Shown here piece by piece: positions 1 to 12,823 of a DNA stretch of 64,000 nt (positions within the stretch are counted from its first letter, which is position 1; each line of letters opens with the position of its first letter). This DNA comes from Treponema sp. GTDB lineage: Bacteria; Spirochaetota; Spirochaetia; Treponematales; Treponemataceae. The notes under the pieces are model-generated. The model did no database searches and was not told the origin of the DNA. It worked only from the letters and a program-made list of their open reading frames with translations. The stretch covers positions 124 through 64,123 of the forward strand of contig DUOS01000128.1 in NCBI GenBank assembly GCA_012838745.1, written 5' to 3'. The position numbers were made by a program, and so were the translations under genes.

Positions 1-344
1 GCCGCGCGCACCTCTTTTGGAAAAATCTTCCCACCTGAGCCGGTAAGTGTTGAAACTCTGAGATTCTCCAACCAAGCAAGCATATCTAACGGTGAAAACT
101 CTGAGAGAAAATTTTTAAACCTCTCCTGATTTTCCCCATACCGGGAAGCAAAATCGGGAAGCGGTGCATCATTTGTAATATTGAGCCCACCATGGCTCCC
201 GGCTGCCAAAAACTTGCATCCGGGCGTGGGCATTTGGTCGTACAAGGAAACGGGAAAGCCCTCGCGAAGCAAGCATTCGCAGGCAAAGAGCCCGGCCGGT
301 CCTGCCCCAACGATTGCAATGTTTTTATTAATCCGTAAATCCAC
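1..344 (-). CDS. FAD-dependent flavoprotein, BaiN/HI0933-like family (family name from memory), N-terminal part; the gene runs off the left edge
   Basis: Own minus-strand translation from GTG at 342-344: (M)DLRINKNIAIVGAGPAGLFACECLLREGFPVSLYDQMPTPGCKFLAAGSHGGLNITNDAPLPDFASRYGENQERF... It has a GxGxxG dinucleotide-binding motif and is open to position 1. It is not in the ORF track because it has no stop inside the window. Confidence 0.6.
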   Translation of the reverse strand, partial: MDLRINKNIAIVGAGPAGLFACECLLREGFPVSLYDQMPTPGCKFLAAGSHGGLNITNDAPLPDFASRYGENQERFKNFLSEFSPLDMLAWLENLRVSTLTGSGGKIFPKEVRA

Positions 345-432
345 TCAGAAGCCTTCTCTTTTTTCTGTTCATGTTGACCCTTACTACCAAATTTCCGGCA
401 TTTATGATGATTTTTTATTTATCAAAACGACT
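253..432. repeat. Direct repeat R1, left copy (partner at 12643-12823)
   Basis: By-eye alignment. GGGAAAGCCCTCGCGAAGCAAGCATTCGCAGGCAAAGAGCCCGGCCGGTCCTGC...AATCCACTCAGAAGCC is near-identical in both copies. The next ~75 nt are more diverged. Confidence 0.85.
350..432 (-). pseudogene. Decayed 3'-end fragment of a DUF2141-family gene
   Basis: The minus strand reads DK*KIIINAGNLVVRVNMNRK, against the C-terminus DKQKILIDADNLIVTVNMNRKKE of the intact gene at 12744-13169. It has an in-frame stop and no upstream body. Confidence 0.6.
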
Positions 433-438
433 CAAGTA

Positions 439-633
439 TCAAGATTTTCGATGATTTGACATATATTCAAGCGCTGCTGATGCTAAAAAACCAGAGCGAG
501 TATGGCCTTTTTTTTGGGCATTTTCTAAAGCTTCTTCAATAGTAGAACCAGCCGAATAACAACCCGGTAAATCGGGAACGGTTACACCAAAGTCGCTGCC
601 AGATTCTTTCTCTATAAAGACGGGGTATTTCAT
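439..633 (-). CDS. hicB: HicB-family antitoxin-like protein with an atypical C-terminal third
   Basis: MKYPVFIEKESGSDFGVTVPDLPGCYSAGSTIEEALENAQK matches the HicB N-terminal fold signature (VPDLPGC, EEAL-N). The sequence after an A8 run (about 516-523) no longer resembles HicB. Confidence 0.55.
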   Translation of the reverse strand: MKYPVFIEKESGSDFGVTVPDLPGCYSAGSTIEEALENAQKKGHTRSGFLASAALEYMSNHRKS

Positions 634-644
634 CCTATTTTCTC

Positions 645-698
645 CTATCCAAACCAGCCATCTTCTTTTAATAGCTTCATTATCTCAGCGCTCTTCAT
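645..698 (-). pseudogene. hicA: hicA toxin remnant (17 codons then a stop)
   Basis: Own translation: MKSAEIMKLLKEDGWFG*. This resembles the HicA N-terminus (MK..ELIKLLEKDGW...). It stops directly before the GGAG ribosome-binding site of hicB. Confidence 0.5.
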
Positions 699-758
699 GT
701 GCGTACAATACACACGGAGGAGACTCCGGTCAAGAAGATTAAAAAAATACTGTTAACA

Positions 759-794
759 GTTTTTCAACCGAAAGCACTGTTGTTTTAAGTAACG
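759..794. repeat. 36-nt dispersed repeat R2, left copy (partner at 12505-12540)
   Basis: GTTTTTCAACCGAAAGCACTGTTGTTTTAAGTAACG versus GTTTCTCAACCGAAAGCACTGTTGTTTTAAATAACG, with 2 mismatches. Confidence 0.8.
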
Positions 795-820
795 AAAAGG
801 ACTATTAGAAGGGGTGACGG

Positions 821-11435: not shown

Positions 11436-12091
11436 GACTTCATCTCTTCTGCAGCAATCAAAACGGTGTCATTCTTAATAAGCCATAACCGCAAAAAATC
11501 TATACCAGGCCATGTCATCATAGCAACCATAGGCATCCACGCCCACATAACGGAAAGGAAGGTATCACTGTGCACTAAAAGTAAATTTGCAACCCAACAC
11601 GCCACAGACAAAATAAACCACCCGGAAACCGATGATTTTATTTCCTTGTATGTAGTAACCGTGACAGAGGCAACTTCCTCTGGATGCATACGATAATCAA
11701 TATATTTTAAAACCGTTGGAACAAAAAATCCCAACCAGGCAGGAACAACAACATAAATAGCATTAAAACCAAAACCATGAAAATAAAACCAGACGCCAAC
11801 AGCAGCCATATATACTGTTCCAAAAATTGCTGCTACACCCATCAACAAAAAATCCAGTTTTTTTATCAGTACCTTTTTCTTCTCACCAGTTATAGTGTCA
11901 ATTAACTCAGAAAGATCCCCTAAAGATTTTACAACCAATGAAAAAGCATCTTTCTCTGACACTCCTGAATGTGTATAATCTTCGACACGATCTATAATAT
12001 GAGTTTCTAACTCCTCACACTGCTCCCGGATTTCCTGCGTATTTTGCAATCCTCGAAACAAACCCCACACAAAATAATGAACCGATTCCAT
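11432..12091 (-). CDS. PadR-associated membrane protein (permease-prefix-domain type N-terminus plus 4-5 TM helices)
   Basis: The N-terminal helical domain ...EIREQCEELETHIIDRVEDYTHSGVSEKDAFSLVVKSLGDLSELIDTI is typical of proteins co-encoded with PadR regulators. There is a 1-nt overlap with padR. Confidence 0.5.
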   Translation of the reverse strand: MESVHYFVWGLFRGLQNTQEIREQCEELETHIIDRVEDYTHSGVSEKDAFSLVVKSLGDLSELIDTITGEKKKVLIKKLDFLLMGVAAIFGTVYMAAVGVWFYFHGFGFNAIYVVVPAWLGFFVPTVLKYIDYRMHPEEVASVTVTTYKEIKSSVSGWFILSVACWVANLLLVHSDTFLSVMWAWMPMVAMMTWPGIDFLRLWLIKNDTVLIAAEEMKS

Positions 12092-12438
12092 TACGCTTCT
12101 CCTATCAACATATCAAGGATTGTTTTGGTATTTTTCCATTCCAAACGCAAACACAAACACAATTCTTTCCCTACATCGGTAATCGAATAATATTTCCGCC
12201 GCCCACCCTTACTCTCCTCTCCCCAATATCCCTTAATATAATCTAACTTTTCAAGGCGCCGAAACGCAGAATATAACGACGGCTCTTTGAGCTCATACAT
12301 CGAACTAGTACGAGAAAGTACCGTTTTATAGACTTCATACCCGTACATATCCTTATCCATCAGAAGATTAAGGATAATTGCATCAATGTGCCCTCGTATC
12401 ATGTCTTTACTTATTTCAATTCGTTTTGTTTGTGTCAT
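12091..12438 (-). CDS. PadR-family transcriptional regulator
   Basis: Winged-helix signature GHIDAIILNLLMDKDMYGYEVYKTV...LYSAFRRLEKLDYIKGYWGEE...GGRRKYYSITDVGKE. Confidence 0.85.
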   Translation of the reverse strand: MTQTKRIEISKDMIRGHIDAIILNLLMDKDMYGYEVYKTVLSRTSSMYELKEPSLYSAFRRLEKLDYIKGYWGEESKGGRRKYYSITDVGKELCLCLRLEWKNTKTILDMLIGEA

Positions 12439-12482
12439 AGTACTATGACTAACATAGTAATCGATTTATTTGAGATGTCAAT
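12434..12482 (-). promoter_or_regulatory. Sigma70-like promoter plus a perfect 16-bp palindrome overlapping the padR start codon
   Basis: Minus strand: TTGACA (12477-12482), 17 nt, TACTAT (12454-12459). The palindrome GTCATAGTACTATGAC (12434-12449) contains the ATG. Confidence 0.5.
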
Positions 12483-12504
12483 ACTTATTTGAAAGTAATT
12501 TAAG

Positions 12505-12540
12505 GTTTCTCAACCGAAAGCACTGTTGTTTTAAATAACG
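12505..12540. repeat. 36-nt dispersed repeat R2, right copy
   Basis: See 759-794. It is followed by the hairpin AAGGGAttacgTCCCTT (12542-12558). Confidence 0.8.
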
Positions 12541-12621
12541 TAAGGGATTACGTCCCTTAAAAGGAGGTTGCATAGCTGAAAAGGGGATACACACTTATGG
12601 ATTACGACAGAATTAAAATAA

Positions 12622-12735
12622 TTACAGATGTTGTAGAAAAGGGGAAAAGCCCTCGCGAAGCAAGCATTCGCAGGCAAAGAGCCCGGCCGGTCCTGCACCT
12701 ACGATTGCAATGTTTTTATTGATCCATAAATCCAC
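12622..12735 (-). pseudogene. Truncated 5' fragment of the flavoprotein gene
   Basis: Own translation from GTG 12735: (M)DLWINKNIAIVGAGPAGLFACECLLREGF, then SPFLQHL*. The first ~31 codons match the gene at 1-344, after which homology ends. Confidence 0.6.
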
Positions 12736-12823
12736 TCAGAAGCCTACTCTTTCTTTCTGTTCATGTTGACCGTTACAATGAGATTATCGGCATCGATGAG
12801 GATTTTTTGTTTATCGAAACCAC
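12643..12823. repeat. Direct repeat R1, right copy
   Basis: See 253-432. Confidence 0.85.

Follow-up and report, generated by a model that had tools for sequence, protein, structure and literature searches.

A block of about 12.2 kb is the subject of this report. It lies near the left end of a 64,000-nucleotide (nt) stretch of DNA (contig DUOS01000128.1; the whole stretch is called the window below) from an uncultured Treponema sp. The block is a lineage-specific insertion between a DUF2141 gene and a flavoprotein gene, which are separated by a 14-nt gap where their junction is undivided. Both ends of the block carry a copy of this gene junction, D1L on the left and D1R on the right. The coding strand of every gene here is the minus strand. 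The features needed to follow the argument are these:

1 to 344, minus strand: 5' part of an HI0933-like FAD/NAD(P) flavoprotein gene (Pfam), with its GTG start at 342-344 and running off the window
252 to 431, no strand: D1L, the left junction copy, made up of a dead DUF2141 3' fragment, spacer and live flavoprotein start
255 to 305 (= 12646-12696), no strand: 51-nt identical stretch, from the alignment of the D1 copies
353 to 431, minus strand: dead DUF2141 3' fragment of ~26 codons, from alignment and translation
12622 to 12735, minus strand: dead flavoprotein 5' fragment with a GTG start, from translation
12643 to 12823, no strand: D1R, the right junction copy, made up of the live DUF2141 3' end, spacer and dead flavoprotein start
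12744 to 13169, minus strand: intact DUF2141 gene, 141 amino acids (aa; PF09912, 2.6e-20)

The duplicated gene junction

The original prediction, made from the letters of the window, described ~180-bp direct repeats around the block and proposed that they be aligned formally. A repeat search and blastn have now corroborated the repeats. D1L and D1R are 89.4% identical over 179 nt with one indel (blastn, E=3e-61) and differ at about 20 positions. The repeat search reports two halves (252-364 against 12643-12755, 113 nt, 94%; 359-431 against 12751-12823, 73 nt, 81%), which are shifted relative to each other by the 1-nt indel and make up one single repeat. In the global alignment the longest identical run is the 51-nt stretch, which is located at the D1R inner edge and codes for GAGPAGLFACECLLREGF. 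On the minus strand, each copy consists of the last ~26 DUF2141 codons, the stop codon with an 8-nt spacer and the start of the flavoprotein gene, including the GTG codon and the first 30 codons with their GxGxxG motif (HI0933-type). Pfam and the translations thus agree with the predicted position of the repeat across the end of one gene and the start of the next. The concern that the repeat might be a dispersed multi-copy element is not borne out, since blastn finds only these two copies and no third in the 64-kb window, and D1 is not dispersed in any of the 73 loci that were fetched. The repeat search found no inverted repeats at the ends of the block.

At each end, one of the two genes is represented by a dead piece. 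The DUF2141 piece on the left reads ..FDK*KIIINAGNLVVRVNMNRKK, and its damage consists of one nonsense codon, a 1-nt deletion and a change of the stop codon from TAG to AAG. The flavoprotein piece on the right reads VDLWINKNIAIVGAGPAGLFACECLLREGF, then SPFLQHL*. In other words, 30 matching codons with one replacement (R4W) are followed by seven unrelated codons and a stop (12622-12624). The earlier description of a dead left DUF2141 piece and an intact right DUF2141 gene is therefore correct. So is that of an early end to the right flavoprotein piece, although the matching codons number 30 and not ~31. There is no further flavoprotein remnant past codon 30 at D1R and no DUF2141 remnant to the left of the D1L fragment. 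The absence of gene pieces past the repeat edges means that the duplication measured ~180-190 nt from the outset and is not the residue of a larger one. A larger original duplication was considered on the strength of a 36-aa tblastn extension into the hicB end, and was rejected because the match is unconvincing (its last ~22 residues carry it).

An undivided form of the junction had been postulated as the ancestral state, and a search of relatives for it was proposed. Such a junction is present in a relative represented by a 930-bp contig (L021; Logan SRR33579954). Its DUF2141 protein is 75% identical in aa sequence to that of the window, and its flavoprotein gene begins 14 nt after the DUF2141 stop and encodes a product that is 72% identical over 130 visible codons. 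The junction DNA is recognizably homologous and can be aligned with both D1 copies. Because the two genes are adjacent in L021, the sequence from 433 to 12642 is an insertion. Both D1 copies hold the continuous junction, which is evidence for ancestral adjacency that does not depend on L021. Therefore, the proposed splitting of an ancestral junction stands, with the qualification that the undivided form was found in this 75% relative and not within the same species.

The adjacency of the two genes appears to be young and clade-specific, with one outgroup supporting it, because distant relatives have other neighbours. DUF2141 genes whose products are 57-58% identical to that of the window have a convergent small gene and a HAD hydrolase gene downstream. 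More distant flavoprotein genes (76% and 51% identity) are preceded by genes for a HAD hydrolase and a PilZ protein, respectively. In two contigs (L018:530-1449 and L019) DUF2141 is present as a tandem pair of paralogues, and downstream of the pair, in place of the flavoprotein gene, lie a convergent 88-aa gene and one for a HAD hydrolase. Shared HAD-hydrolase synteny between the contig with the 76% flavoprotein (L017) and L018 or L020 was tested for, and there is none. A combined DUF2141 and flavoprotein query of a genome-contig collection without this species returned only three alphaproteobacterial flavoproteins with ~50% identity. A DNA pattern across the junction had 0 matches in a metagenome collection, which therefore does not contain the JGI sample that holds the block. 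A protein scan of metagenomes found DUF2141 homologues with at most 39% identity, none of them adjoining a flavoprotein.

Both junctions between the block and its flanks are real, because in independent assemblies each repeat is continuous with the unique sequence beyond it. A 12,658-bp contig from JGI spans window positions 12805 to 148 with 100% identity; it begins within D1R, most of which it contains, and continues through the block and the complete D1L into ~100 nt that are unique to the flavoprotein gene. Another sample supplied an ENA contig, also 100% identical, that spans positions 12916 to 3011: it starts in the unique part of DUF2141, passes through D1R and ends in the operon. It might be argued that the arrangement is an artefact of the source metagenome-assembled genome (MAG), such as a chimeric join at the repeat or between strains. 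The source contig does end 470 nt beyond D1L, and de Bruijn contigs of several samples break inside the repeat. However, the D1 copies differ at too many positions to be collapsed copies of one sequence, and the JGI and ENA contigs that cross D1L and D1R come from different assemblers and samples. An artefact is thus very improbable.

The two dead pieces do not look equally old. With L021 as the outgroup, the differences between D1L and D1R can be polarized. The dead DUF2141 piece has accumulated 10 derived substitutions and one indel in 77 nt, whereas the dead flavoprotein piece has 2-4 derived changes in 98 nt (Fisher p=0.018-0.047). The raw divergence points the same way (15/79 in the DUF2141 part against 5/98 in the flavoprotein part, p=0.007). 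By these counts, the dead piece of DUF2141 seems to be the older of the two. This fits a junction copy that travelled with the insert, because a one-step duplication in place makes both pieces simultaneously.

Variation among strains

Further evidence comes from other samples that contain the block or its flank. Contigs with the block were fetched through proteins identical to PadR or HicB, and contigs with the flank through proteins identical to DUF2141 or to a rhomboid protein encoded 10 kb away. Ascertainment is symmetrical, because an exact protein match was used on both sides. In four sample accessions the block has no mismatches to the window, whereas the flank in the same samples diverges by 0.14-0.8%. 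The Poisson values below give the chance of zero block mismatches at the flank rates.

SRR2917896: block 0 mismatches in 12,337 nt; flank 12/7,728 nt; Poisson 5e-9
JGI 3300002898: block 0 mismatches in 12,658 nt; flank 6/4,216 nt; Poisson 1.5e-8
SRR3747713: block 0 mismatches in ~12,600 nt; flank 4/2,559 nt (Logan) and 52/6,623 nt (ENA); Poisson <3e-9
SRR8931207: block 0 mismatches in 1,288 nt; flank 32/6,633 nt; Poisson 2e-3

SRR2917896 and JGI 3300002898 are maybe the same sample, in which case the four accessions amount to three datasets. Two low-coverage ENA contigs from another study do differ from the block (1/621 nt and 3/515 nt). The block either has recently spread or swept between strains or is carried by only some strains. 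Under either option it is younger than the divergence of the strains.

The sequence that follows the DUF2141 gene is itself variable. Two contigs (L002 and L003) end one nucleotide short of a T/C site at 12726 in D1R, and a third (L001, from SRR8931207) reads through with C at 12726 and G at 12697, both of which are the bases found in D1L. This indicates that at least two alleles of the post-DUF2141 sequence co-exist in these samples. L001 lacks two of the changes in the D1R of the window and still encodes an unblemished VDLRINKN... start, which fits the reading that the DUF2141 stump arrived old with incoming DNA and the flavoprotein stump was cut fresh. L001 was also considered as an allele of the empty site, but the contig ends in the shared core and is therefore indistinguishable from a D1R variant. 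Among the fetched contigs, none proves an empty site within the species.

A separate case of variation lies in the Clp ATPase gene (18466-21048). At ~19546-19576 the alignments of contigs from other samples are split in two, with a 31-nt overlap between the parts, and the product is 854, 860 or 866 aa long depending on the sample. This points to a length-variable short repeat inside the gene.

Contents of the block and its neighbours

In the direction of transcription (minus strand), D1R gives way to ~93 nt of unassigned sequence, followed by one copy of a second repeat (D2R), by a promoter-like site and palindrome belonging to the PadR gene, and then by 11 genes. After a 111-nt spacer come the other copy of the second repeat (D2L), another promoter-like site and the remnants of hicA and hicB, and D1L begins 7 nt further on. 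By position the features are as follows:

439 to 633, minus strand: hicB remnant of 64 aa, matching positions 1-38 of the 123-position HicB profile
645 to 698, minus strand: hicA remnant of 17 codons, MKSAEIMKLLKEDGWFG and then a stop, read from the sequence
705 to 733, minus strand: promoter-like site TTGACC-17-TATTGT upstream of the hicA remnant, from the sequence
744 to 804, no strand: D2L, inner nested repeat, just downstream of the last operon gene
916 to 12438, minus strand for all genes: 11-gene operon (Pfam, NCBIfam; same gene order in other spirochaete contigs)
12435 to 12450, minus strand: perfect 16-nt palindrome GTCATAGTACTATGAC over the PadR start codon, from the sequence
12454 to 12481, minus strand: PadR promoter-like site TTGACA-16-TACTAT, from the sequence
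12492 to 12550, no strand: D2R, inner nested repeat, upstream of the PadR promoter

The decayed hicAB module and the 11-gene operon had both been described in the original prediction, and the open reading frames (ORFs), Pfam and NCBIfam support this description. Five of the operon genes encode PadR, a permease-prefix membrane protein and proteins of 425, 444 and 205 aa. The other six encode a NapH/MauN-like 4Fe-4S membrane protein, a 710-aa Glucodextran_C protein, a LolD-like ATPase, two LolC/E-like FtsX permeases and a LolA-like (TP_0789-like) protein. All of the Lol matches are below the NCBIfam equivalog cut-offs, and therefore the system is called Lol/MacB-like here and not Lol. The 425- and 444-aa proteins have no family match in Pfam or NCBIfam; judged by eye, they are possibly outer-membrane proteins. 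The palindrome GTCATAGTACTATGAC is likely to be a PadR autoregulatory operator. The hicAB pair falls short of a full module, since there is no full-length HicA and HicB lacks its DNA-binding C-terminus. The hicA stump, too short for a test with a hidden Markov model, presumably corresponds to the N-terminus of HicA.

The block appears to lack any means of moving itself, as had been noted from the sequence. No integrase or transposase domain was found among its ORFs (Pfam and NCBIfam, with PadR and the hicB remnant left out of the latter), and neither database gave a match to an excisionase, a relaxase or a phage gene. There is no room for a hidden recombinase gene, because the intergenic gaps are so small (280 nt at most, the two largest being 280 and 200 nt). 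The nearest tRNA gene is at 61.6 kb, which bears out the statement that there is no tRNA attachment (att) site, and the repeat search agrees with the reported absence of inverted terminal repeats. Neither the block nor the hicAB region has a DNA match to phage or plasmid records.

The second repeat was missed in the first reading of the sequence. D2 is a pair of direct repeats (59-61 nt, 84-90% identity), nested within D1, which brackets exactly the 11-gene operon. D2R overlaps a terminator-like hairpin (12541-12559), and each copy lies ~25 nt upstream of a TTGAC -35 box. Rfam gave no credible match for positions 1-14000, so D2 is not a known RNA. D2 is also absent from the orthologous operon loci of other spirochaetes. 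This arrangement may point to two nested insertions, first of hicAB and then of the operon, each with a duplicated target.

One contig breaks at D2. L013 (ENA ERZ12298773, 548 bp, coverage 1.26) contains the hicA and hicB remnants, D1L and the flavoprotein gene with 99.4% identity. The 33 nt with which it begins have no counterpart in the window, and the point of divergence coincides exactly with the D2L inner edge (758|759). The contig may represent a chimera or a variant without the operon. The idea that the 33-nt head is the 93-nt segment beside D1R, as it would be in an operon-less intermediate, was rejected, since the alignment is no better than with shuffled sequence.

Other spirochaete contigs contain the operon with its genes in the same order but in unrelated surroundings, the 710-aa protein being 41-62% identical. 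In one contig (L022) the operon lies between genes for a cellulase and an HD/cNMP protein, and in another (L024) after a UPF0020 methyltransferase gene; neither of these operon loci contains D1 or D2. The composition check proposed earlier has been run and gives a mixed answer. The tetranucleotide (4-mer) distance of the block is not an outlier among 12-kb windows, whereas its genes are slightly AT-richer (GC 0.403 against 0.435, p=0.004; GC at third codon positions, GC3, 0.318 against 0.373, p=0.013), in a comparison confounded by the rest of the window being rich in highly expressed ribosomal and RNA-polymerase genes. Composition is therefore weak evidence for a foreign origin. The source of the cargo, to judge from these sequences, is probably a related spirochaete or the same genome.

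The flavoprotein gene to the left had been called intact. Its 114 visible codons match Pfam PF03486 HI0933_like (6.5e-24), but the claim is unproven, since the source contig, a 64,314-bp piece of a Treponema sp. MAG, covers no more than the first 156 codons of the gene. A set of 5.8 billion proteins contains no full-length copy, and an exact-protein look-up of the flavoprotein of this MAG returned no record. The assembly of this gene always breaks within codons 65-156, whether in the MAG, JGI or Logan contigs and in any sample. The recurrent break hints at a further structural variant or repeat just to the left of the window. In L017:1117-2324 two ORFs of 117 and 285 aa share the HI0933 flavoprotein between them (76% identity to that of the window over its visible N-terminal part), which represents a frameshift, a pseudogene or a sequencing error. 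To the right, the intergenic region between the GH1 beta-glucosidase and DUF2141 genes (13193-13260; L021:1-70) is conserved between the window and the 75% relative and holds a terminator-like hairpin (13193-13208).

The insertion has changed the surroundings of the flavoprotein gene. In L021, where it begins 14 nt after DUF2141, the two are probably co-transcribed. In the window it is 12.4 kb from DUF2141 and follows the hicB remnant by ~95 nt. The promoter-like site upstream of the hicA remnant may now drive both the hicB remnant and the flavoprotein gene, whose expression would depend on read-through from this promoter or from the operon. Such a dependence could be the reason why the hicAB wreck persists.

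Origin of the block and its relation to known islands

How did a copy of the junction come to stand at each end of the block? The original prediction was a Campbell-type integration, and the two repeats do correspond to one uninterrupted sequence at the L021 junction, as such an event requires. The undivided junction in L021 favours it, and the apparently unequal ages of the dead fragments and the monomorphic block add modest support. However, a circle and a donor have not been found, and the mechanism is one that we infer. A refinement of it, a homology-driven insertion-duplication in which incoming DNA with its own old junction copy recombined with the chromosomal junction, has in our estimation an even chance of being right. 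The incoming DNA, presumably circular, would already have borne an old and partly decayed copy of the junction, including the long-dead DUF2141 stump. A single reciprocal crossover with the chromosomal junction, probably inside the 51-nt identical stretch, would then have left one hybrid junction copy at each end and kept both flanking genes whole. DUF2141 would have retained its own 3' end, and the flavoprotein stump would have been freshly cut from the live gene at integration. The flavoprotein gene itself would have gained a new 5' end with ~90 nt of upstream sequence from the insert, and possibly the hicA promoter as well. The insertion would cost neither gene, because the duplication preserves the DUF2141 3' end and the flavoprotein 5' end. 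In short, the junction copy would be old and its integration or spread recent.

The 51-nt stretch is most likely the crossover site, if the alignment is any guide. It supports the model because the inner edge of D1R is where a crossover between diverged partners is expected. A repeat of ~180 nt with 51 identical nt is enough for RecA-type crossing-over. Since the block encodes no recombinase, a host or trans-acting enzyme would be needed, either RecA-type homologous recombination of the host or a recombinase supplied in trans. Later excision of the block via the same repeats would be possible. Among the retrieved contigs, none joins the hicB remnant through D1 to the PadR side.

Several observations weigh against this proposal. 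The age asymmetry rests on ~15 substitutions polarized with a single outgroup, and the live flavoprotein start would produce an identical pattern if it had converted D1R. The monomorphic block could equally reflect a recombination-driven sweep of an old insertion. The undivided junction was seen in one relative only, distant relatives having other neighbours, and no circular form, donor or same-species empty site was found. The cargo is a conserved spirochaete chromosomal operon with a composition that is barely different from its surroundings, so that a foreign origin is unproven. The nested D2 calls for a second event or for some other explanation. Finally, the model presupposes an earlier event that gave the incoming DNA its junction copy.

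What if the junction was instead duplicated where it stood? This might have happened by a ~190-bp tandem duplication with an insertion at its midpoint, by capture of DNA at a staggered break with fill-in, or by a template switch resembling microhomology-mediated break-induced replication or fork stalling and template switching (MMBIR/FoSTeS-like), in which the block was copied from elsewhere and the junction re-entered ~190 nt upstream. An attraction of these routes is that the incoming DNA needs no prior copy of the junction. The operon is also native to the clade with a composition close to that of the rest of the window, and D2 likewise lies on both sides of inserted DNA, a hint that the process responsible duplicates its target. 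However, duplication in place predicts dead fragments of equal age, which is not how they appear. The 11% divergence of the D1 copies would place the event well before the 0.14-0.8% divergence of the strains, yet the block is without polymorphism; old-looking repeats around a young-looking block fit poorly with an ancient event in place. Nor does a tandem duplication give any reason for the insert to land exactly at the midpoint, let alone twice. We regard an origin in place as unlikely, and we are just as doubtful about another possibility, that of a stripped site-specific integrative element resembling a cis-mobilizable element (CIME) or satellite island. In such an element D1L and D1R would be attL and attR, the 51 nt would be the core, the integrase would be encoded elsewhere by a helper or have been deleted, and the hicAB wreck would be a leftover maintenance module. 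A block of perfect identity within direct repeats and a rebuilt target gene end are typical of integrase-driven islands, a toxin-antitoxin remnant does lie at one end, and the block is monomorphic among strains. On the other hand, the block contains no integrase, excisionase, relaxase or phage gene and has no room for one, its cargo is an ordinary spirochaete chromosomal operon, and it matches no phage or plasmid record.

Of the hallmarks of integrase islands, the block has att-like repeats with an identical core, and it has no recombinase, no tRNA or tmRNA neighbour and no phage or conjugation cargo. In CIMEs, as described for ICESt1, and in integrative mobilizable elements devoid of a recombination module, att-like direct repeats bound a block without integrase or transfer genes, and mobility functions are supplied in trans. 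However, no related integrative and conjugative element, helper or integrase target is known here, and D1 is longer and more diverged than typical att cores. Transposons and insertion sequences also leave their insert flanked by a direct duplication of the target, usually of ~2-15 nt. Here the duplication is ~180 nt, its copies are 11% diverged, and there is neither a transposase nor terminal inverted repeats. Campbell insertion-duplication, as in suicide-plasmid mutagenesis, likewise places an insert between two direct hybrid copies of a target segment. The Treponema case differs in that it would have happened in nature, with an operon of the chromosome as cargo and between partners already ~11% diverged; no vector, replication origin or circle is known.

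The closest documented analogue is the microcin H47 island of E. coli, in which ~13 kb of cargo lie between extensive imperfect direct repeats and no recombinase is encoded (Azpiroz et al. 2011, PMC3191183). Experiments demonstrated that this island excises and integrates, the crossovers taking place at several of the identical stretches, and other strains have empty sites that resemble a hybrid of both repeats (PMC3191183). Excision required neither RecA nor any of the site-specific recombinases and recombination functions that were tested (Azpiroz & Lavina 2017, PMC5426353). The Treponema block resembles it in the similar size of its chromosomal cargo, in long imperfect repeats with stretches of perfect identity, in the absence of a recombinase and in the existence of an empty site elsewhere. 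It differs in that movement of the H47 island was proven experimentally, whereas the Treponema block is known from sequence alone. The phylum, cargo and target are also different, and the Treponema repeats represent a gene-gene junction that keeps two genes whole, accompanied by a nested pair. In common with both the H47 island and CIMEs, the block has long imperfect repeats and no internal recombinase, its empty site being found only in the 75% aa relative. It is thus a new member of a known but sparsely populated kind, the recombinase-less islands with long imperfect repeats. The structural reading is sound, and the mechanism is plausible but unproven.

A further step would be to regard the block as a working mobile island without a recombinase, equipped with a portable, decayed copy of its target and moving between Treponema strains purely by host recombination while sparing its neighbours. 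On this idea the device would have been used twice in nested fashion, D1 around D2, and would indicate a general way for ordinary operons of spirochaete chromosomes to turn mobile. This we hold to be improbable.

No new principle is involved. What the locus offers is a clean instance from nature in an unusual host: its geometry spares the genes, and the population data speak for recent movement. It shows how an insertion can do no harm, since the genes on either side are both restored by the duplicated sequence. Conserved across spirochaetes and uncharacterized, the operon that it carries encodes a Lol/MacB-like transporter under PadR control, together with a LolA-like protein and two large proteins without a known family. 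Most catalogued islands have been recognized by an integrase, a tRNA target or foreign composition, and this block has none of these. Nevertheless, it is island-like in behaviour, with one haplotype across strains whose flanks differ. To our knowledge natural gene transfer in spirochaetes is little documented. If host recombination on a carried target copy moves this 12-kb operon, standard island finders would miss it, and spirochaetes could commonly reshuffle core-like operons in this way.

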